A DNA stretch of 13,507 bases from a virus, in UHGV virus genome UHGV-0166527; one strand, written 5' to 3'. Each line of letters starts with the position of its first letter. The stretch's first letter is position 1. Positions 50 to 11,921 of this stretch are shown here, in pieces. A program made the position numbers and the translations under genes. The notes beneath the pieces were generated by a model. The model saw only the letters and a program-made list of their open reading frames with translations. It was not told the origin of the DNA and made no database searches.

Positions 50-2794
50 TCAAATCGCGTTCAGGTCTTTCTTATTCAACCATGCTTCCAGAGCGGCAAC
101 ACTGTGTGTAATTTCTTCGTGTGGGAGGGGGGCAGATAATGGTTGCTGCTCCAGTTGCGCGCATAGCTGGCTGGCGCTACGCATTCCCAGACTCGCGCAG
201 CTGCTTTTTAGCTGGTGCGCGGCACGTTTAATTTTTTCGCCGTCCTGCCTGGCGCGGGCTGCGTCTATTTCATCGAGAAGTGGCAGGGCATGTTGTTTAA
301 ATAATGTCAGCCATTCGCGAATACTCTCCGTCCCCATTAACTGAGCATCTTCATGGAGTTGCGATACATCCAGCGATTGATCTTTATTGGTTTGCAGTTG
401 GAGATAGTGCGCCAGTAACTGACCGAGCACTTCACGCGGCACTGGTTTAGGGATAATCCCGCGAAAGAGCGAACTGGTTCGCTGGCGCAGCGTTTCGTCG
501 ATGACATGGGCGCTAAAGCCAATCAAAACCAGCGACGGATATTGCTGTACCAGTTGTCGGGCAAGGGTAATGCCGTCGATATCCGGCAGATCAAAATCCA
601 CCAGTGCGGCAGCAAATGGTTCACTATTTTGCAGCGTTTCTATCGCCTGCGCGGCATTGCCAACAGCCACGACCTGCGCACCACTGGTGTTTAGCATCTC
701 AACGGTAATTCGCTGGGTTAGCGGGTTATCTTCAATTAACAGCAAACGTAAACCGTCCAGACGTACCGCCTGATTGACTGTTTTTGGCACGGGGGCAGTG
801 GCAACACGTAACGGCAAGCGTAAACAAAAACAGCTTCCAGCCCCCGGCGTGCTGGTGGCGCTCAGTTCGCCGCCCATCGCCTGAGCCAGACTGCTACTGA
901 TAGTCAGCCCCAGCCCGGTGCCGCCGCGTTTGCCGCTTACCTGAACAAATGGCTGGAATATTTCTGCCAGTTTCGCGGGATCAATACCGCAGCCGCTGTC
1001 TTCCACTTCGACCAACCATTGCTCGCCATCAGTGCGACTGCGCAGGACGATCTGCCCCTCGTCAGTGAAACGCACGGCGTTGCTCAACAAGTTGGTAATA
1101 ACCTGGCGAATACGTCGCGGATCGCCCATTAACGCGCTCGGTACATCGTTGGCAATTGCCGTTGCCAGGCGAATCGGGCGACCTTTCACCCGCCCGCTCA
1201 TTAATTGCAGGGTACTTTCCAGCAGCGGGCGTGGTTCAAAGGGTTCATCGCTGACCGAAACATTTTTGCCCCCCGCTTCGATAGCCGAATAATCGAGGAT
1301 ATCGTTAAGGATGGTCAGCAGCGATTCGCCGGAGTCGGTAATTGCCCGCAAATCATCACGCTGGGCGTTAAGTGCGGGGTTATCTGCCAGCAGTTGCGCG
1401 GTGCCGAGAATACCGTACAGCGGTGTGCGGATCTCATGGCTCATTGCCGCCAGAAACGCAGATTTTGCCTGGCTGGCTTTTTCGGCTTCCGCACGAGCCT
1501 GTCGATGTTCTACCACCAGTTCCTGTAATTCAGCCGTGCGCGCTTTTACTTGTGCCGCCAGCTGTTCGCGCTGGCGATTCAGCGCATGAACGCTGCTGCG
1601 AAACGCATCCATCAGCCGCCCGATAGTATCCAGCTCCCGCACGCCAGCGGTTTCCGGGAAAGGGGAGTCGATATCACCGTCCAGCAAGCGTTGCAGCGCC
1701 TGCGTTTGTTCAGCAAGTGGACGTGTGACAGAGCGATAAACCACGCGCCAGAGGATCAGAATCAGTGCGCAAAGTGAAACCATCCCCAGCAATACCAGGC
1801 TGTATTGCCCGCGTGCGCTGGCTTTTTCCAGATGCGCCAGTCCATGTTGATTACGCAGCTCAATGGTGTCGACCAGCTGACTGACTTCGCTACTAAACTG
1901 CGCAAACTGGGCGATGTTATTTTGGGCGAGAGTGTGCAGGTGATTGCTGATTTCACTGTCCTGCTGATACAGCGCCAGCAAATCGCTATATTGGCTAACG
2001 GTAGTTAACGTTGTTGCGACCTGAGCACGAACTCCCGGATCTTCAATGCGTATTTGCCGACGTTGCAGAATTTTCACCGCATTATTGAGCTGCTTTTCCA
2101 GCGTTGGCGCATTTTTCTGGATCTGTTCCAGCCCCAGATTCATCACCATTTGCTGCACCCGCAGAGCACTAAGGCGCAGTTCATTCATCTGGTTAACATA
2201 CTCAAGATCGATATCAATCAGCCTGTCGAGTGCGCTTTCGGCGGCCTGACGCTGATGTTGTTCGATCAAATCGTAAATCCCGGCCTGGGTAGCTCCGGCG
2301 GAGGTGGCCGCATTATTCGCCTGACCTTGCGCCAGGCGTGCGATTTCATCGGCGGCGGCGACTATCTGCTGACTGAGTTGCTGTTGTTGCTGGCGCAGTT
2401 GCAAACGCTGCCCCACCAGCTCCCCTTGCTGACGTAACGAACGGGAGATCTCCTGCTCCTGTTGTTCAATAGCGGTGGTATCAAAACCTTGTTCCCGTAA
2501 TGCTTGCAGCAACGCATTAATCTTCAGGCTTTGTGCGGTGAGCATTCGCCCCTGCGCCTGCCACATCTTTTCGTTATCGGCACTGGTCAGGTTCTGCGCG
2601 GCGAAAAGTTCCCAGGCGCTGGCTTCGCTCAACTGGCGCGCCATATTCATGGTAGGAATCAATGCCTGAGTGTTGTCTTTTTCCACCTGGCTGATAAAGC
2701 GCAGGTTGTACCATCCCACCAGGGTACTGGTCAGGGTTAACAGCGCCATCAGGGCAAAGCCCATCCAGAGCCTTCGGGTCAGGGTTAAATTCAC
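50..2794 (-). CDS. torS: Hybrid sensor histidine kinase TorS (trimethylamine N-oxide two-component sensor), complete 914 aa
   Basis: 914-aa ORF with N-terminal TM segment, HAMP-like region, histidine-kinase H-box (MSHEIRTPL), ATPase motifs (GTGLGL), receiver domain ([10 protein letters not shown]) and C-terminal HPt region; length and N-terminus [19 protein letters not shown] match my recollection of E. coli TorS. Confidence 0.93.
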
Positions 2795-2888: not shown

Positions 2889-3962
2889 TCATTTGTCGAT
2901 TTCAATTTTGTCCCATTCCCGTCCACGGCTGTCCCTATACCGCGCCGCCATTGAATCTGATTTATGCCCGAGAAGACGTTGAGCAAACTTATCGCCAATC
3001 TGGTTCCGGTATAGCCTCGCTGACAGGCTACGCAGTTCATGGAATGTTGGCGGGTTTCCATCAAATGAGAGTCCAGATGCATTTCTCGCCTTTGTAAAAT
3101 ACTTTGATACTGTTTTCGGGGAAAGCGGATCGTGATGCTTTGATGCGATTATAGTTTCACTGCTGCTGGCCTCCCTGCATTTTTGTAGTGTATCAGCCAA
3201 TGAGATATTGAGCGCGTCAATCGTTAGCGTCAGCGGAATGGCGAGCTTAGCCCCTGTTTTACTCTGCTCAATGTGAAGATGGTTGTCGTTTATGTCTGAC
3301 CATTTCATTCTGCACAAATCGCCCACTCTCTGCCCTGTAACGACAGCCAAATCCATTGCCAGCCTCAGCCAGATTGGGAGAGGTTCGGCTGCATGGTAAA
3401 TCGCGACATACTCATTAGCTGTCAGCCTTGAGCGCCTTACTTCTGACTTTGCTGTGCGGGTTGCTGTTACCGGATTCGTTTCCACATGCCCCTCGGCTAT
3501 TGCCTCACGAAAAACGTCAACAAGGGTTGACCTGATTAATTTTGCGGAAGCTGCTTTACCTTCTGCTACGTAGGTGTTTAGCATTGCTGCCACCTCTTTC
3601 GTTGATATGTCATTGAGCGGTTTGTCCGGCAATTTTCTTCGAATCGCCCTGATTTTGCTGGCGTAGTCGAGTAGAGTTTTCGGTCTGATACCCCTCTCGC
3701 TGAGGATTGTTTCATATCGGTCAAGCCACGCATGAAGAGTGATTGCGTCAGCGCCTTTAATCCTGTCTATCAGTGACTCACGCCTGTTCTCGGATAGCAA
3801 CTCAATATTGGCCTGAATAGCCTCTGAAACTGCTATCCTTCTGTCTCTGCCTAATCCGAACTCTTTACCCGTCCTTGGGTCCCTGTAGCAGTAATATCCA
3901 TTGTTTCTTATATAAAGGTTAGGGGGTAAATCCCGGCGCTCATGACTTCGCCTTCTTCCCAT
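2889..3962 (-). CDS. int: Tyrosine integrase, lambda Int family (357 aa)
   Basis: N-terminus MGRRRSHERRDLPPNLYIRNNGYYCYRDPRTGKEFGLGRDRRIA and C-terminus RGREWDKIEI closely match recalled lambda Int; catalytic motifs TGQRVGDL, HELRSL, LLGHKSD, ARYRD present. Confidence 0.95.
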   Translation of the reverse strand: MGRRRSHERRDLPPNLYIRNNGYYCYRDPRTGKEFGLGRDRRIAVSEAIQANIELLSENRRESLIDRIKGADAITLHAWLDRYETILSERGIRPKTLLDYASKIRAIRRKLPDKPLNDISTKEVAAMLNTYVAEGKAASAKLIRSTLVDVFREAIAEGHVETNPVTATRTAKSEVRRSRLTANEYVAIYHAAEPLPIWLRLAMDLAVVTGQRVGDLCRMKWSDINDNHLHIEQSKTGAKLAIPLTLTIDALNISLADTLQKCREASSSETIIASKHHDPLSPKTVSKYFTKARNASGLSFDGNPPTFHELRSLSARLYRNQIGDKFAQRLLGHKSDSMAARYRDSRGREWDKIEIDK

Positions 3963-5047: not shown

Positions 5048-5259
5048 CACTTTACCTCCTGCGCCGCTTTGATGATTGCAGCCAGGCAATTCTTGCACGG
5101 AACCTGAAATGAACCCTGCTCAATGCTCAACAGTGCATGCTGAGCATCCTGAAAAAGCCAGTCTGAAAATTGTGGTACATGTCCGCACCACGTCTCTATT
5201 TCATGCTTTGCAAGCTTGGCGCCGTCACGATAGTCATATTTGATAATGTGCTTACTCAC
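5047..5259 (-). CDS. Hypothetical small protein (70 aa), GTG start
   Basis: GTG at 5257-5259 preceded by AGGAGGTGAAGCC; N-terminus SKHIIKYDY is paralogous to the next gene upstream. Confidence 0.5.
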   Translation of the reverse strand: MSKHIIKYDYRDGAKLAKHEIETWCGHVPQFSDWLFQDAQHALLSIEQGSFQVPCKNCLAAIIKAAQEVK

Positions 5260-5273
5260 GGCTTCACCTCCTG

Positions 5274-5531
5274 CTACTGTGATGCTGGCTGATTATCGTT
5301 AACGTATGCATCAGGAAGCAGATACTGCTTAGCCATCCAGTTATCACACTTCATTTCAGTAATGTATTTTGGCAGTTCACCGTGCTGACAATTGAATAGC
5401 CACCACTGGTCACCCATGCTTTGAGGAATAGCGCGCTCATACGTGATACCAAGCTCGCGAATTACTTCTTGCGGGTGCCTGCTTTCTCCTGAATAAGCAG
5501 CACCCATACAGTCATAGCGTAAGTGTTTCAC
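5274..5531 (-). CDS. Hypothetical small protein (86 aa), GTG start
   Basis: GTG at 5529-5531 preceded by AGGAGGTGAAGCC; N-terminus KHLRYDC; the ORF-track 116-aa version (start 5624) is an in-frame extension lacking an RBS. Confidence 0.5.
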   Translation of the reverse strand: MKHLRYDCMGAAYSGESRHPQEVIRELGITYERAIPQSMGDQWWLFNCQHGELPKYITEMKCDNWMAKQYLLPDAYVNDNQPASQ

Positions 5532-5535
5532 GGCT

Positions 5536-5652
5536 TCACCTCCTGCACAGGCTGAAAATAAACGATGTGATTGCCAAATCCTGAATTGCTGTAATTGCCA
5601 GCATCCAGCCATAAATGCTTTCACTGAAATGCCATGCTAGTGCTGTAATCAC
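5536..5652 (-). CDS. Possible small hydrophobic peptide (38 aa, VITALAWHFSESIYGWMLAITAIQDLAITSFIFSLCRR), GTG start overlapping the stop of the 405-aa gene
   Basis: Hand translation; GTG at 5650-5652 within GTGA overlap, preceded by AGGAGGTTAAGCC; not in the ORF track because it is under 60 aa. Confidence 0.35.
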   Translation of the reverse strand: MITALAWHFSESIYGWMLAITAIQDLAITSFIFSLCRR

Positions 5653-6866
5653 GGCTTAACCTCCTGAGGCGGTTCTGGTAGAGACATCCAGTGAGTTACG
5701 TCATCCAAGATATTTCCTGATAAATACGTGAAAGCTCTATATTTTTTGTAATCAATTGGATTTACAACCCAGTTCCAATATGCGGCCACGATTTCACCTT
5801 GACTAAATGCCAGTAACATTTTGGTGTCTTCCGGCATTCGATCACTACAGCTTATCCAACCATCCGGAGTTACCGGAGAATTGCCATTTACCAAGTCAGC
5901 TCGAACATATAGCGTGTCATCATGGTGCTGATTGTGGCTGCACCACGTTAATTCGCTTAACTCGCCATCTTCTGGCCATACTCCAGCTGTTTGCAGCCAG
6001 ATATGGGCTGGCGCATCTTGGCAAGGTGTATTAACTGGCAACTTGTAAGTTTGGCTTACAGGTTGGCTACCCTGAAGCATGGCAGCGCGGCAGGCATACT
6101 CAACGCCCTTAACTGCATCTGCGCAGTAGTTATAGCGATTGCATTCCACTAATTTCCGTTTGAGTTTTTCAATTGCCTGCGCGACATCAGCCTGTATTAC
6201 AGGAACTGGCGGAACGGCTGTTTGCTCTCGAACGTCATTAGTCGCTATCGGTTCTGCTGCCAACTGGCTGGCATATTTGTTAATGGTAACGATAAGCTCT
6301 TGCTCAGCCTCATCCAGACAATCACCGATACCTCGCCTGTCACCGTCAAAATCATCGAAATCGGCACGAATCTTGGCAACCTTCAGGATTGCGGACAACA
6401 CCTCACTAGGAATTACCGGATAGTTGGTTGATGTTTCCGCGATTTCCCGAAAATTATTGGTTGACGAATTCTTGTTTTCCCGAAAGTTTCCGGACTGAAG
6501 CATGGCGGCGCGGCAGGCGTTCCAGCCATCTGCGTAACAATCTCTGTGTGTCTTGAAATATGTCACCGCCCTTGGTACATCGTTTACGTCTATTTCATCC
6601 GGCACAACCGGCGCAGGTGAGTCAGCATAAACAGGAATAACGTCCGGTTGCTCTTTATTGCTTTCATCCGTTAAAGCCAAGAATAATTTTCCGGCCGGAT
6701 GTTTGAAAATATAAGCAACTGGTTCTGCTTCCAGCGATGCCAGCGCCAACTTGAACGCCTGAAGCTCAATGGCACTGTTGGTATCCAGTCCAAACGGTAA
6801 TTCATCACGATTGGCTTCGTATTCAGCGATAGTTTGCTTCAGCCATTCTTTGGTTAGTTCAGCCAT
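5649..6866 (-). CDS. Phage early-region protein (405 aa) with an internal duplicated motif (ACRAAMLQ) and a C-terminal region reminiscent of DUF551-type phage domains
   Basis: ATG at 6864-6866 (MAELTKEW) chosen because the upstream ATG at 6917 overlaps the preceding gene and lacks an SD; family assignment is from memory and uncertain. Confidence 0.6.
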   Translation of the reverse strand: MAELTKEWLKQTIAEYEANRDELPFGLDTNSAIELQAFKLALASLEAEPVAYIFKHPAGKLFLALTDESNKEQPDVIPVYADSPAPVVPDEIDVNDVPRAVTYFKTHRDCYADGWNACRAAMLQSGNFRENKNSSTNNFREIAETSTNYPVIPSEVLSAILKVAKIRADFDDFDGDRRGIGDCLDEAEQELIVTINKYASQLAAEPIATNDVREQTAVPPVPVIQADVAQAIEKLKRKLVECNRYNYCADAVKGVEYACRAAMLQGSQPVSQTYKLPVNTPCQDAPAHIWLQTAGVWPEDGELSELTWCSHNQHHDDTLYVRADLVNGNSPVTPDGWISCSDRMPEDTKMLLAFSQGEIVAAYWNWVVNPIDYKKYRAFTYLSGNILDDVTHWMSLPEPPQEVKP

Positions 6867-8477: not shown

Positions 8478-8861
8478 CTAGAAGGGAATTGAATCGTCGT
8501 ATTCAGGATGATTTTGATGATTGCTACTTTGCTGCTGTTGGCTGTTTCCTGAAGTTGCAAATCCAATCTTTGCATTCAGTAATTCAAGATTGATTGATTG
8601 ACCATTTTGCCCCTGATAAACATCAACCCTGATGTTTTCTCCGGTAATTTCAACAATGCCACCTTCAACAAGAACACTACGGTAGTAATCCGCTTGCGCT
8701 CCCGGCTTGGCAAATACAACGGCGCTGTAGTTTGTCCATTCTTTCTTTTTTGTCTGGCGATCGTAATACTGAACGCCAGCACGGATGTTGAATCCGATAT
8801 TTTCCCCGGCCTGAAACTCTCTTGCGGGCTTGTTTAGTCTTACAGTAATCGAATGTGCCAT
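8478..8861 (-). CDS. ssb: Single-stranded DNA-binding protein, phage SSB-like (127 aa)
   Basis: OB-fold-like core and C-terminal acidic tail ending DDSIPF (compare E. coli SSB DDDIPF); ATG at 8859-8861 overlaps erf stop (TAATG). Confidence 0.75.
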   Translation of the reverse strand: MAHSITVRLNKPAREFQAGENIGFNIRAGVQYYDRQTKKKEWTNYSAVVFAKPGAQADYYRSVLVEGGIVEITGENIRVDVYQGQNGQSINLELLNAKIGFATSGNSQQQQSSNHQNHPEYDDSIPF

Positions 8862-9466
8862 TAAGCAGCCGCTCCTTCTAATTCGTCTCGTCTGATGTTG
8901 TAAACGTCCTGCGCTTTGTGCTGCTCCGGTGTGCCTTCGAGCATCTTCCACGCTTTGGCGAACGCCTGTTTAAGCTCTTCTACGGTGTTTTTCTGCATTG
9001 CTGCGTCAGTGAATGCTTTTAGAACCTGTTCAGGCGTAGGTGATGGTTTTGATTGCTTTGCTGCTGCGTTCTGCTGATGTTTATGCTCGTCTGTATCTGC
9101 ATCTTTCGCATCATCAATGCCGAACAAACCATTGAGGCAATACTTGCGTGCATAAGAGCTTGTGGCTCCCGTAACTTGTGCAGAATCCATTCCTTTCTTG
9201 CTTTCTTCCTCTCGTGCAAGAGCGGTTGCTGTATGACTGTTTTCGCCATCAGTAATAGTTGCCGTGGCTTTCACGTAATACCGATCACCAATCAACACAA
9301 CTTCATCGCTGATTGATAAAAACAGACCATTCAGTAACGGCTTAACGCCTTCAAGAATATCTTCGCAGCTTCTGTATTTATATTTACCGAATGAGTTGTA
9401 CTGATTTTTTGGCGCGTTCAGATTCTCCTGAATGGCTGCCAGTCTTGCGTAAAATTCTTTGCTCAT
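8861..9466 (-). CDS. erf: Single-strand annealing protein, ERF family (P22 Erf-like, 201 aa)
   Basis: MSKEFYARLAAIQENLNAPKNQYNSFGKYKYRSCEDILEGVKPLL... closely matches recalled P22 Erf; ATG at 9464-9466. Confidence 0.85.
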   Translation of the reverse strand: MSKEFYARLAAIQENLNAPKNQYNSFGKYKYRSCEDILEGVKPLLNGLFLSISDEVVLIGDRYYVKATATITDGENSHTATALAREEESKKGMDSAQVTGATSSYARKYCLNGLFGIDDAKDADTDEHKHQQNAAAKQSKPSPTPEQVLKAFTDAAMQKNTVEELKQAFAKAWKMLEGTPEQHKAQDVYNIRRDELEGAAA

Positions 9467-9555
9467 ATGTTTGTTCTCAGAATGGACATGGCCCAAGGAA
9501 ATAACGCTGATTTAATACTTCAGTCTTTGCCGCATTTAAAAATACGCGAACACCT

Positions 9556-9726
9556 TCACGATCTCCCTTCTGGCGATACATTAACGCCTGCTGCGTGTAC
9601 ATGCGTCTCTGTAACTTGCTCTCCTTCACTGTGGTTGCAAGTGACATGAATATCTCCTTCGTTACCGATTAAATCTTTCATCTGACGAATGAATTCTTCG
9701 TCTGACCAGTTATCTGTAAAACTCAT
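9556..9726 (-). CDS. Hypothetical small protein (56 aa) in the arf-like position between kil and erf
   Basis: ATG at 9724-9726 overlapping kil stop (ATGA); position analogous to P22 arf but sequence not recognised. Confidence 0.45.
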   Translation of the reverse strand: MSFTDNWSDEEFIRQMKDLIGNEGDIHVTCNHSEGEQVTETHVHAAGVNVSPEGRS

Positions 9727-9875
9727 TTCCTGCGATACCACGGAAGGTTGATAGCTGATTTCATCGCTTTATTTGCTTCAAGCCACATTTTTGAATCACC
9801 AATAAATCTGGCTATTACTGCTTTGTTCTGTGCAGCACGAAGCATCTGGTGATTAATGGCTATTTCATTGCGCAT
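9723..9875 (-). CDS. kil: Kil-like host division inhibitor (50 aa)
   Basis: Hand-translated MRNEIAINHQMLRAAQNKAVIARFIGDSKMWLEANKAMKSAINLPWYRRK; shares the FIGD.KM core with recalled lambda Kil; GGAGG SD upstream; absent from the ORF track (under 60 aa). Confidence 0.6.
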   Translation of the reverse strand: MRNEIAINHQMLRAAQNKAVIARFIGDSKMWLEANKAMKSAINLPWYRRK

Positions 9876-9994
9876 AACGCCTCCAGTTGTTTCTTTGCTG
9901 CTCTGATTAATTGTTTAACTCGGCGTGATAATTCAGATTCGTGCGGGTAGAAAGCGGACATGACGCCGCTACCCGCGAGCTGAAAGTGCATCAT
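9860..9994 (-). CDS. cIII: CIII-like protein (44 aa, FtsH-inhibitor family)
   Basis: MMHFQLAGSGVMSAFYPHESELSRRVKQLIRAAKKQL... resembles the lambda CIII amphipathic core (SESLLERITRKLRDGWKRL); AGGAG SD 6 nt upstream of ATG 9992-9994; overlaps kil start as in lambda. Confidence 0.55.
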   Translation of the reverse strand: MMHFQLAGSGVMSAFYPHESELSRRVKQLIRAAKKQLEALCAMK

Positions 9995-10056
9995 GGGTAA
10001 CTCCTTATATTTGATTGCATAACGAAAATGCCTCTCGTGAAGCATTATTGGTATGC

Positions 10057-10080
10057 GGTAAAGCCGCGCTTGGCGGCTTA
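10057..10080. repeat. Copy 1 of a 23-24 bp intergenic element GGTAAAGCCGCGCTTGGCGGCTTA (contains inverted repeat AAGCCGC/GCGGCTT) overlapping the stop of the 138-aa gene
   Basis: Near-identical to 10517..10540; palindromic core. Confidence 0.6.
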
Positions 10081-10494
10081 TTTGAAGATGTCTATGAAAT
10101 CAAGAACTGATGATATTTCGTGGTTGAACGATTTTCTTTTGTATCTTTCTATCGCAGAATCCACCTGGTGTTTATAGTCATCGTCGTTTGAGTATTTAAC
10201 GAAGCATTCTATTGTCTCAGGCGTTACAGCTATAAGGCTCCACCAACCTTCATCAGATTGATATTCAAATCCCATGCTTTCAAGCCATCCAGCATATTTC
10301 CCTCCAGCATCTTGCCAGTGTGTCTTTTCTGCAAGGAAGCTGTTAACCGTCATATGTGCATCAAGGCATTTATCCAACTGTTTACCATTAAGTAGCCATG
10401 CGCTGACAGTTGCACATCCCAAATCAACTGATTGAGTAGAGATATTGAATTGGTCGTAATTATCTGGATTAACCAGGATATCTGTAATTTCCAT
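10078..10494 (-). CDS. Hypothetical phage protein (138 aa)
   Basis: ATG at 10492-10494 preceded by GGAGGAATT; no recognised family. Confidence 0.6.
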   Translation of the reverse strand: MEITDILVNPDNYDQFNISTQSVDLGCATVSAWLLNGKQLDKCLDAHMTVNSFLAEKTHWQDAGGKYAGWLESMGFEYQSDEGWWSLIAVTPETIECFVKYSNDDDYKHQVDSAIERYKRKSFNHEISSVLDFIDIFK

Positions 10495-10516
10495 AATTCC
10501 TCCGTCATTGGCAGGT

Positions 10517-10540
10517 GTTAAAGCCGCGCTTGGCAGTTAC
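10517..10540. repeat. Copy 2 of the 23-24 bp intergenic element (GTTAAAGCCGCGCTTGGCAGTTAC) overlapping the stop of the 82-aa gene
   Basis: Near-identical to 10057..10080. Confidence 0.6.
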
Positions 10541-10785
10541 TCTATTTCTTCTTCGAATGATTTTATTAGTCGGTCAATAACATCATCTGTTTCAATATCA
10601 TTTCCGTCTGATTGCTTTAATACGTCTATTGATTCTACGGCGGTAAACTCCATCGCTGTGAGAAACTCGACAATTGCACACCCAACGACATATCGTTCTT
10701 CATCTGTACGACATGAGATAAAAGAGCATTTAATTGCTGTTATTACTTTTTGTTTAAGCTCTGCAGGGTAATCAGTTTTTATCAT
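10537..10785 (-). CDS. Hypothetical small acidic protein (82 aa)
   Basis: ATG at 10783-10785 preceded by GGAG 6 nt upstream; acidic C-terminus (DGNDIETDDVIDRLIKSFEEEIE). Confidence 0.6.
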   Translation of the reverse strand: MIKTDYPAELKQKVITAIKCSFISCRTDEERYVVGCAIVEFLTAMEFTAVESIDVLKQSDGNDIETDDVIDRLIKSFEEEIE

Positions 10786-10798
10786 CGTTTACTCCGTC

Positions 10799-10826
10799 AA
10801 AAAAACTGCCCTCACATTGGAGGGCA
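10799..10826 (-). terminator. Intrinsic terminator (minus strand): stem TGCCCTC / loop CAATGT / GAGGGCA followed by seven U
   Basis: 7-bp GC-rich stem; the minus-strand U-tract corresponds to + 10799-10805 (AAAAAAA); lies just upstream of the 82-aa gene RBS. Confidence 0.65.
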
Positions 10827-10942
10827 AAGAAGATTTCCAATAATCAGAACAAGTCGGCTCCTGTTTAGTTACGAGCGACATTGCTCCGTGTATTCACTCG
10901 TTGGAATGAATACACAGTGCAGTGTTTATTCTGTTGTTTATG

Positions 10943-10970
10943 CCAAAAATAAAGGCCGACTATGCGGCCT
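10943..10970 (-). terminator. Intrinsic terminator (minus strand): stem AGGCCG / loop CATAGT / CGGCCT followed by TTATTTTTGG; the loop contains the stop codon of the 207-aa gene
   Basis: 6-bp GC-rich stem plus U-rich tract read on the minus strand; tL1-like position after the N operon proximal genes. Confidence 0.6.
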
Positions 10971-11583
10971 CGGAAGGAAGTCCAATCATCTTATTCAAAT
11001 CTTCTACCCGTAAAGCAGGAAGTGCTGTACTTGCTTTGTCTGCTTCTTTTGGTAGCAATTCTTTGCTTTCAGGCCAAACTTCAATAAGTCGCTTAACTGT
11101 TGTGACTGAGTTCAAAGCAGCCCATACATTTGATTCGATATCCTTTTTCTTGGCTTCAAGTTTTTGTTGCAATGCGCAGATTTCATCAAACCTTTTTGTT
11201 ATTTCGTGTTCTGCGTCAAACATGCATTTATCTTTGGTCGGAGTAGGGAGCAATATATCTTCGCCGTTGCCGTCTTTCCCATATGAATGCCATCCAACCC
11301 TTCTGCCAGATACAGTCAGATAAATCGAAGTAGAACGAACATCGCATGAGTAAAATGAACATCCCATCTTTTCAATTTCTTCACTTATAGCTACTAACCT
11401 GGATGATAACTGATCCACTTCATCAGTTTTCTTTTTACCGCCAAACGCAACAACCCTGGCGTCAAGTGCAAGCTGGTTCTTTAACCTTGTTACTTCTTCA
11501 AGTTCAGTGAAAACCCCAGACTTAATTAAAGCGTTACGAGCGATTTTCTCTTTCATTCTCGTAGTTAAGCGGATTGATGACAT
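10960..11583 (-). CDS. Hypothetical protein (207 aa) immediately downstream of N, upstream of the first terminator
   Basis: ATG at 11581-11583 (MSSIRLTTRMKEKIARNAL...) preceded by GAGAGGAA; soluble, no recognised family; occupies the ral/sieB accessory slot. Confidence 0.65.
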   Translation of the reverse strand: MSSIRLTTRMKEKIARNALIKSGVFTELEEVTRLKNQLALDARVVAFGGKKKTDEVDQLSSRLVAISEEIEKMGCSFYSCDVRSTSIYLTVSGRRVGWHSYGKDGNGEDILLPTPTKDKCMFDAEHEITKRFDEICALQQKLEAKKKDIESNVWAALNSVTTVKRLIEVWPESKELLPKEADKASTALPALRVEDLNKMIGLPSEAA

Positions 11584-11594
11584 ATTAATTCCTC

Positions 11595-11921
11595 TCAAAT
11601 AAGTGGTTTGCTGCCTAATTTCATTTTCTGGCGACCAACACAAGTCACACCCATTTCACTGCGTGGCTTGCTGTACCATGTGCGCTGATTCTTGCGTTCA
11701 ATACGTTGCAGGTTGCTTTCAATCTGTTCGTGGTATTCAGCCAGCACCGTAAGGTCTATCGGATTCAGTGCGCTTTCTACTCGTGATTTCGGTTTGCGAT
11801 TCAGCGAGAGAATAGGGCGGTTAACTGGCTTTGCGCTTACCCCAACCAACAGGGGATTTGCTGCTTTCCATTGAGCCTGTTTCTCTGCGCGACGTTCGCG
11901 GCGGCGTGTTTGTGCATCCAT
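11595..11921 (-). CDS. N: Antitermination protein N (lambda-type, 108 aa)
   Basis: MDAQTRRRERRAEKQAQWKAANPLLVGVSAKPVNRPILSLNRKPKSRVESALNPIDLTVLAEYH... matches recalled lambda N including the arginine-rich motif; AGGAGA SD upstream of ATG 11919-11921. Confidence 0.9.
   Translation of the reverse strand: MDAQTRRRERRAEKQAQWKAANPLLVGVSAKPVNRPILSLNRKPKSRVESALNPIDLTVLAEYHEQIESNLQRIERKNQRTWYSKPRSEMGVTCVGRQKMKLGSKPLI

Follow-up and report, generated by a model that had tools for sequence, protein, structure and literature searches.

Conserved linker or boundary sequences are said to mark the module junctions of lambdoid phages, a concept attributed to Susskind and Botstein in 1978 and, on HK620, to Clark et al. 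in 2001. Morons, reportedly described by Juhala et al. in 2000, are said to consist of a gene with a 3' terminator inserted between phage genes, and the tL2 terminators of lambda were reportedly mapped by Luk and Szybalski in 1983. Integron attC cassettes offer an analogy only: a promoterless ORF is followed by an imperfect palindrome, and tandem arrays are possible. The genome paper of phage L describes intra-operon terminators as common in these phages and of unknown role, suggesting that they act by partial termination or stop transcripts that are not antiterminated (PMC8022706). In lambda, the Hfq-dependent small RNA PreS (LPR1, ~88 nt) is encoded between ral and ea10 and has its 3' end at tL2a (bioRxiv 10.1101/2024.10.31.621285). 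When homologies are short or diverged, the phage proteins Red-beta, RecT and Erf are more efficient at recombining them than RecA (PMC3945230, PMC2327257), and the minimal segment for efficient pairing by Red-beta is ~23-27 bp (PMC3945230).

The locus described here lies in a window of 13,507 nucleotides, the whole of the analysed stretch of virus genome UHGV-0166527. The window is a lambdoid prophage, and its left part is the junction between prophage and host, since the host torS sensor kinase gene (50-2794, minus strand) adjoins a lambda-type integrase with an arm-binding domain (2889-3962, minus strand). The region of interest is the pL (early-left) operon on the minus strand, an assignment based on Pfam matches to Erf, Kil and cIII and on annotated relatives. 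The operon order on this strand is a gene of the Nmad5 family, a non-coding stretch, an 82-aa gene, a 138-aa gene, cIII, kil and erf. The 82-aa and 138-aa genes fill a slot between PreS/tL2A and tL2B/cIII, which holds ea10 in lambda and gene 17 in P22. A near-identical short sequence overlaps the stop codon of each of the two genes; the copy at the 3' edge of the slot is called E and the copy between the genes E'. The most probable reading, in our judgement, is that E is a terminator-type 3' border of a variable slot in the pL operon and doubles as a homology arm, and that E' is a historical footprint.

The left border of the slot is an intrinsic terminator called by a terminator scan (10796-10827, minus strand; UUGCCCUCCAAUGUGAGGGCAG followed by U7), equivalent to tL2A in HK620 and kept upstream of every cassette type. 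A PreS (LPR1) homolog with an approximate extent of 10799-10886 (minus strand) ends at this terminator and is recognized by near-identity to the lambda ral-ea10 region. The non-coding stretch 10786-10959 as a whole is almost identical to the lambda ral-ea10 intergenic region, with the Nmad5-family gene before it in the place of ral. An inverted repeat directly precedes the PreS homolog (10878-10925) with 22-nt arms, 82% complementarity and a 4-nt loop. It is conserved in lambda and HK97; the surrounding 166-nt region is predicted to fold with -56.5 kcal/mol (z -5.2) and could be a processing or 5'-end-defining structure for PreS. The Nmad5 (nucleotide modification associated domain 5) gene itself (10960-11643, minus strand), located between the N region and the PreS homolog, is followed by a terminator-like hairpin at 10952-10971 (GAGGCCGCAUAGUCGGCCUU with UAUUUUU), and is also present in Kapi1 and mEp235.

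The upstream occupant of the slot is the 82-aa gene (10537-10785, minus strand), which matches phrog_14587, "anti-restriction protein", with an E-value of 3.5e-47. The downstream occupant, the 138-aa gene (10078-10494, minus strand), matches phrog_8967 (1e-86), a PHROG without assigned function, and its protein has no Pfam family. With these matches both ORFs count as genuine genes of phages. The ribosome-binding region of this gene, GACGGAGGAAUU (10495-10506, minus strand), is identical whether it follows the T-run of tL2A or E'. Across positions 10190-10483 the 138-aa gene shows ~74-75% nucleotide identity to a hypothetical gene of virulent E. coli phages of the rV5-like group (Vequintavirinae), FV3 and V18 among them; the best-ranked matches include nothing closer from deposited lambdoid phages. 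Going by this similarity, the gene is probably an old exchange between temperate and virulent phages.

On the right-hand side, E is followed by a conserved spacer, GCAUACCAAU (10047-10056, minus strand), which also forms the right-hand edge of the empty-site allele, and then by a second scan-called intrinsic terminator (10017-10046, minus strand; AAUGCUUCACGAGAGGCAUU and UUCGUUAUGC), a hairpin annotated as tL2B in the HK620 record. Two tL2B alleles are found, AAUGC...GCAUU and AACGC...GCGUU (10027-10046 in the window), which differ by a compensatory change of a U-A to a C-G pair and in the loop; the compensatory pair is good evidence of structural selection on the tL2B hairpin. The first conserved gene downstream of the slot is cIII (9860-10045, minus strand; PF08134, 4.6e-30), annotated in relatives as a shorter gene of 135 nt, followed by kil (9723-9875) and erf (8861-9496), both on the minus strand and identified by Pfam matches. 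The cassettes resemble morons in combining an accessory ORF with a terminator-like hairpin that is present or absent between conserved neighbours, but no promoter of their own is evident, and they would be read from pL. Promoter-like matches are at shuffle level (five weak matches, 5.9 expected); two of these, at 10521-10493 and 10488-10459 on the minus strand, lie close to where the 138-aa gene starts and score only 9/12.

The repeat itself is real. The two 24-nt stretches at 10057-10080 and 10517-10540 carry exactly the sequences reported in the original prediction, and a minus-strand TAA lies under each of them as it had claimed, at 10078-10080 for the 138-aa ORF and at 10537-10539 for the 82-aa ORF. 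They share a 16-nt core, TAAAGCCGCGCTTGGC, which is exact at 10059-10074 and 10519-10534, inside a longer similarity of 28 nt with 86% identity (10047-10074 against 10507-10534). Coincidence, or a recent local duplication private to this genome, has a next to negligible probability: the window contains only two copies, as such an account would have it, but two core matches with up to three mismatches occur in 0 of 200 dinucleotide-preserving shuffles of the window, and the same two-copy layout is present in independent genomes and metagenomes, which together rule out an element unique to this genome or a chance similarity. The copies moreover differ at 4 of the 28 aligned positions and have different evolutionary histories. 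The further claim that the 138-aa gene is bracketed by one palindromic element, AAGCCGC/GCGGCTT, survives in part. A non-chance direct repeat stands on both sides of the gene, but the palindrome is present in copy 1 only, with plus-strand arms at 10061-10067 and 10073-10079 around a loop at 10068-10072; in copy 2 the second arm is replaced by GCAGTTA.

Folding separates the two copies in the same manner. E (10057-10080, minus strand; RNA sense UAAGCCGCCAAGCGCGGCUUUACC) forms a 7-bp hairpin in the sense of the gene, with the TAA of the 138-aa gene overlapping its 5' arm; the predicted energy is -10.9 kcal/mol (z -2.7), equalled by 1 of 200 shuffles. The corresponding fold of copy 2 reaches only -4.7 kcal/mol, and 144 of 200 shuffles are as good. 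In transcript sense, an occupied site reads ORF, GCCGCC, loop, GCGGC, UUUACC, GCAUACCAAU, tL2B. The 5' arm, which lay outside the search pattern that collected the copies, is intact in 149 of 153 of them; the other four carry a C-to-U change that retains a G.U pair even though it turns an alanine codon of ea10 into valine. Loops vary (CUGAGU, CUGAGC, CUAAGC, CAAGC, CAAAC, CAAGA, CUGUUG). We folded each allele separately, because MAFFT placed the alleles with 5-nt loops out of register. The common hairpin is predicted in 20 of 21 distinct alleles, with 5-9 bp and -7.1 to -14.8 kcal/mol. The stem is either invariant or altered to G.U pairs, and true covariation is almost absent from it.

These natural variants also bear on the proposal that the element is a protein-binding site. 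A DNA palindrome bound by a dimeric protein would agree with the perfect 7-bp inverted repeat of copy 1, yet the variants GCGGU (lambda) and GCCGU (four contigs) pair only as G.U on the transcript and would break the symmetry of the DNA, and the loop length varies from 4 to 6 nt. We know of no candidate protein that would bind E. The G.U-compatible variants point to a constraint on RNA rather than on DNA, leaving the proposal without support, and we consider it extremely improbable.

As it stands in the window, E matches neither a known RNA family nor the terminator consensus. In a search of Rfam 15 over the element no family reaches the gathering score; the best match, isrK on the opposite strand, scores 18.1 bits against a threshold of 50 (E = 0.37). 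A terminator scan of the window, with at least 5 U required in the 8 nt 3' of the stem, calls three sites on the minus strand, tL2A (10827-10806 with U7), tL2B (10046-10027 with UUCGUU) and a third site at 10971-10952, but neither copy of the repeat. Copy 1 fails because its tail is UUUACCGC. The relatives of E in Salmonella phages, by contrast, carry a U-run and pass the consensus. Gene 17 of P22 ends in ACA GCC GCC TGA GTGCGGC TTTTT, and the P22 record (NC_002371.2) carries a terminator annotation on GCCGCCTGAGTGCGGCTTTTT at 28402-28422, which overlaps the stop codon of gene 17. The corresponding position in phage L is occupied by CAGCCGC...GCGGCUG-UUUU, and a tL2B homolog comes next. Both hairpins pass the terminator consensus scan, and both are terminators by annotation or in silico prediction.

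Judged by sequence and position, E and the annotated terminator of P22 gene 17 are homologs: the P22 hairpin, GCCGCC-UGAGU-GCGGC with the stop codon in its loop, occupies the matching place, where the slot gene ends ahead of c3/cIII. P22 differs in lacking the tL2B hairpin that follows E in E. coli phages. Since the P22 and L homologs are of the terminator type, E is the form taken in E. coli phages by an intra-operon hairpin built like a Rho-independent terminator. It sits between tL2A and tL2B, in the same operon and with the same general build as the members of the lambda tL2 cluster (tL2A-D, as annotated in HK620, AF335538), but it is not a named terminator and is present only in occupied slots. 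Most E. coli alleles, that of the window included, have a U-run cut to UUUACC, and with this erosion E would at most act there as a weak terminator or pause and as a 3'-end hairpin. Our literature searches on tL2b and on the P22 gene 17 terminator found no open paper on hairpin E. Of the RNA hairpin originally proposed, copy 1 is therefore upheld as a hairpin of terminator type, on the strength of P22 and L homologs that pass the consensus and of the P22 annotation, while copy 2 forms no hairpin.

Salmonella phages P22, L and epsilon34 carry a PreS variant with a different terminator hairpin, GCCGCUC...GGGCGGC. An attractive lead is that E may have been derived from this alternative PreS terminator (GCCGCUC...GGGCGGC, a U-run and GCATACCAA), because its arms and junction are colinear with those of E. 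An exact-pattern scan for more alternative PreS-terminator alleles joined to GCATACCAA found none.

The slot exists as nested alleles, apparent from the alignment of junctions among relatives: an empty site, a site with one ORF and a site with two. In the empty sites of HK97, mEp235 and HK620, tL2A is directly joined to GCATACCAAT-tL2B-cIII (GAGGGC-T-run-ATAT|GCATACCAAT), and both the ORF and E are absent. One-gene slots are found in lambda, Kapi1 and sequences L123-L128, and two-gene slots in the window, L130 and a few others. As a single occupant the slot may hold ea10 (lambda), a gp17-like 103-aa gene (Stx-type prophages), the 82-aa gene (Kapi1, L131 and L132) or the 138-aa gene (L123 and L124, and E. 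coli C4 and A26); where the 138-aa gene is alone, GACGGAGGAAUU directly follows the U-run of tL2A. At least six unrelated classes of ORF end at E: ea10, the gp17-like 103-aa gene, the 82-aa gene, the 138-aa gene and the ORFs of L179 and L165, as counted in viral and genome contigs fetched by search pattern, a census with some bias from the patterns and with redundancy, since many of the contigs are lambda-like or contaminants. The 5' arm of E is made up of the two final codons (Ala-Ala) in ea10 and the gp17-like gene, whose stop codon lies in the loop, and in the other slot genes the stop codon abuts or precedes the 5' arm. In a second sample, anchored on the downstream sequence alone, E was absent from all 61 empty sites and present in all 18 occupied ones, although two of the 18 have a substitution in the 3' arm. 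A scan of viral contigs with a 15-nt core gave mostly unrelated G+C-rich matches and was replaced by patterns of 19-22 nt. Matches to non-Escherichia entries of the genome collection were mostly chance hits of degenerate patterns or small low-coverage contigs resembling lambda carry-over, and were rejected. The latter include L134, L136, L143, L150, L154 and others, short low-coverage contigs in assemblies of Pseudoxanthomonas, Enterococcus, Bradyrhizobium and other genera, which look like lambda DNA carried into the assemblies.

The position of the stop codon raises the possibility of a translation-coupled switch, in which a terminating ribosome melts E and the freed 3' arm pairs with the downstream ACCGCAU, so that termination at tL2B, or expression of cIII, would respond to whether the slot gene is translated. 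The lambda allele of E, GUGCGGUUUUACCGCAU, is indeed predicted to prefer another hairpin, GUGCGGU/ACCGCAU, built from the 3' arm and the spacer; this is its minimum-energy fold, and both of the C-to-U changes of lambda strengthen it. Such a switch is possible for the ea10 and gp17 alleles, the two gene classes with the stop codon in the loop, but cannot be general: four other cassette types have their stop codon at the 5' arm or before it, most alleles form the alternative hairpin only weakly, no target for it is evident, and empty sites express cIII without E. As an explanation of E we find it quite unlikely. In the mechanism we favour, every slot ORF ends at E, followed by GCAUACCAAU and tL2B, and the N-modified polymerase would read through E.

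Several observations indicate that the sequence around E is also a place of repeated exchange. Each of ea10, the 82-aa gene, the 138-aa gene and the empty site is found with both tL2B alleles, one contig has a hybrid tL2B, and the 138-aa gene is also found followed by the loops that typify ea10 (UGAGC) and gp17 (UAAGC). This reshuffling of slot genes and tL2B alleles shows that crossovers have repeatedly taken place within the ~40 nt that run from the slot ORF to the distal side of tL2B. Conservation of E, the spacer and tL2B next to ORFs that share no relationship makes this block of ~40-60 nt the right-hand homology arm for the exchange of slot genes. The exchange would most likely be carried out by Rad52-like recombinases of the phages, and the window encodes one candidate, Erf. 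The exact repeat of 16 nt is below the minimal pairing segment of 23-27 bp, so that crossovers strictly inside E should be inefficient and many may fall in the spacer or tL2B. E is therefore best seen as contributing homology to a longer arm that comprises E, the spacer, tL2B and the cIII leader, and not as an independent recombination site.

The original prediction had also suggested a recombination linker that marks module boundaries, and of its three readings this one comes closest and is largely right. One short sequence flanks unrelated genes at a gene boundary, being the common 3' border of at least six ORF classes; ea10, the 82-aa gene and the 138-aa gene are each seen with both tL2B alleles; the position of copy 2 coincides with the joint created by the addition of the 138-aa gene; and breakpoints lie in or next to E, as seen in the tL2B combinations, the hybrid tL2B, a drop in identity between ea10 and E', and an E' that looks chimeric. 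The recurrence at gene boundaries of other lambdoid genomes that had been proposed is likewise found, but it is confined to one slot and is not genome-wide, and crossovers also occur elsewhere in the conserved block. E shares with lambdoid linker sequences the position of a short conserved sequence beside non-homologous genes and the crossovers in its block, but differs in its specificity to one slot, and its conservation may owe as much to the function of the hairpin as to a part in recombination.

A more specialized alternative is that E is a dedicated recombination site for cassettes, comparable to integron attC, by which promoterless ORFs are captured in a site-specific or hairpin-targeted manner. 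The cassettes do consist of a ribosome-binding site and an ORF with an imperfect palindrome at its 3' end, they can stand two in a row, and the absence of E from empty sites means that it travels with the cassette. Each genome, however, has one such slot with at most two cassettes seen; there is no integron-type integrase, attI or attC-type architecture, and the lambda-type Int at the prophage end is the only tyrosine recombinase in the window. One identical junction in all tandem loci speaks for a single founding event rather than recurrent capture, breakpoints are also found in tL2B, and the internal site is decayed, being unfolded in all four E' alleles, the opposite of what is expected of an active site. 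We therefore hold this alternative to be very unlikely. A related idea gives the hairpin itself a role as the preferred point of cassette capture, for instance through template switching or hairpin-directed annealing by Erf, RecT or Red-beta. If true, promoterless counter-defence ORFs would be stacked there and the interval between PreS and cIII would be a small cassette array system, but we lend this idea decidedly little credence. Homologous exchange through the E-spacer-tL2B block remains the preferred account of how genes are replaced in the slot.

The internal copy has a history of its own. E' with its spacer (10507-10540, minus strand; RNA sense GUAACUGCCAAGCGCGGCUUUAACACCUGCCAAU) is a decayed paralog of E with ~75% identity to it. 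Sequences of this type are seen only in the rare two-gene slots and always upstream of the 138-aa gene. Four E' alleles are available, and the stem is present in none of them: 3-4 bp are predicted, with -4.0 to -5.0 kcal/mol. The 5' arm is mutated in all four (CUGCC or CAGCC; CUGCC in the window), and two have further changes in the 3' arm (GCAGC and GUGGC). The loss of the stem in all four alleles implies that the upstream gene of two-gene slots does without such a hairpin.

This decay decides against the reading in which both copies are working RNA elements that supply each gene with its own 3' hairpin for mRNA processing or protection from 3' exonucleases. That both copies lie at a stop codon and that copy 1 and its orthologs fold well would agree with it; the failure of copy 2 to fold better than shuffles, and the absence of a stem from every E' allele, with the additional stem-breaking changes GCAGC and GTGGC, are against it. 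We regard it as unlikely. The notion of the same functional hairpin occurring twice is wrong, and the two copies are not equivalent. E' is instead the degenerate remnant of a copy, marking the place at which recombination brought in a second gene.

The junctions of E' agree with such a footprint. E' ends in ...GCGGCUUUAACACCUGCCAAU, followed by GACGGAGGAAUUAUG, always identical ahead of the 138-aa gene, and the junction ...CCAAT|GACGGAGGAATTATG is the same in six loci with two different upstream genes. The upstream partner is the 82-aa gene in the window, in E. coli WCHEC040047, in Escherichia sp. E1V33 and in two more contigs, and ea10 in E. coli Z1323HEC0423 and one viral contig. In L130, ea10 is ~97% identical to lambda ea10 until its last codons, after which identity drops to ~75% across E'; the drop at this joint indicates that E' has a history different from that of the preceding gene and belongs to the upstream flank of the 138-aa module. 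The E' of the window looks chimeric: in its 5' half it resembles the E that L132 has after the 82-aa gene, whereas the 3' half matches the E' of L130 exactly. We infer that one old and probably illegitimate join placed ...E-spacer-CCAAT before the ribosome-binding site of the 138-aa gene and created the two-gene slot. The internal copy, no longer beside tL2B, would then have lost its stem, and the upstream partner would later have been exchanged, to the 82-aa gene here and to ea10 elsewhere, through crossovers at or in E'.

The locus is a clear but ordinary example of phage mosaicism and reveals no new mechanism. The P22 terminator annotation, the classical neighbours tL2A and tL2B and the concept of lambdoid boundary sequences are already known; what may be unwritten is that one hairpin is the 3' border of at least six unrelated ORFs, is absent from empty sites, and decays in its internal duplicate. 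The comparison provides a base-level picture of how one lambda-like accessory hot spot is built and reshuffled, with the PreS terminator as a fixed left border, E and tL2B as a fixed right border, and at least six interchangeable ORFs between them. These ORFs include an anti-restriction-type gene and the P22 gene 17 family, which makes the slot useful for the annotation of prophages and for a position-based search for new counter-defence genes. It also offers a natural case for weighing mosaic joints at conserved linkers against selection on random joins.

Two further repeats came to light in the analysed sequences. A 19-nt sequence, GCAGGAGGUGAAGCCGUGA, occurs three times on the minus strand of the window (5256-5274, 5528-5546 and 5649-5667), twice in identical form and once with 89% identity. 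Three small genes in succession each take their ribosome-binding site and GTG start from one of the copies, in one case with stop and start overlapping as GTGA, and such repeats at gene boundaries could serve as recombination homology. In Salmonella phage GE_vB_TR (L355), an ORF upstream of the slot/cIII junction contains a tandem array of ~400 nt (~1890-2300 of that sequence) with a repeat of ~27-30 nt, GGTCAGCGGCAACTAACACTGGCAAC..., which may be the pentapeptide-repeat gene annotated in phage L.
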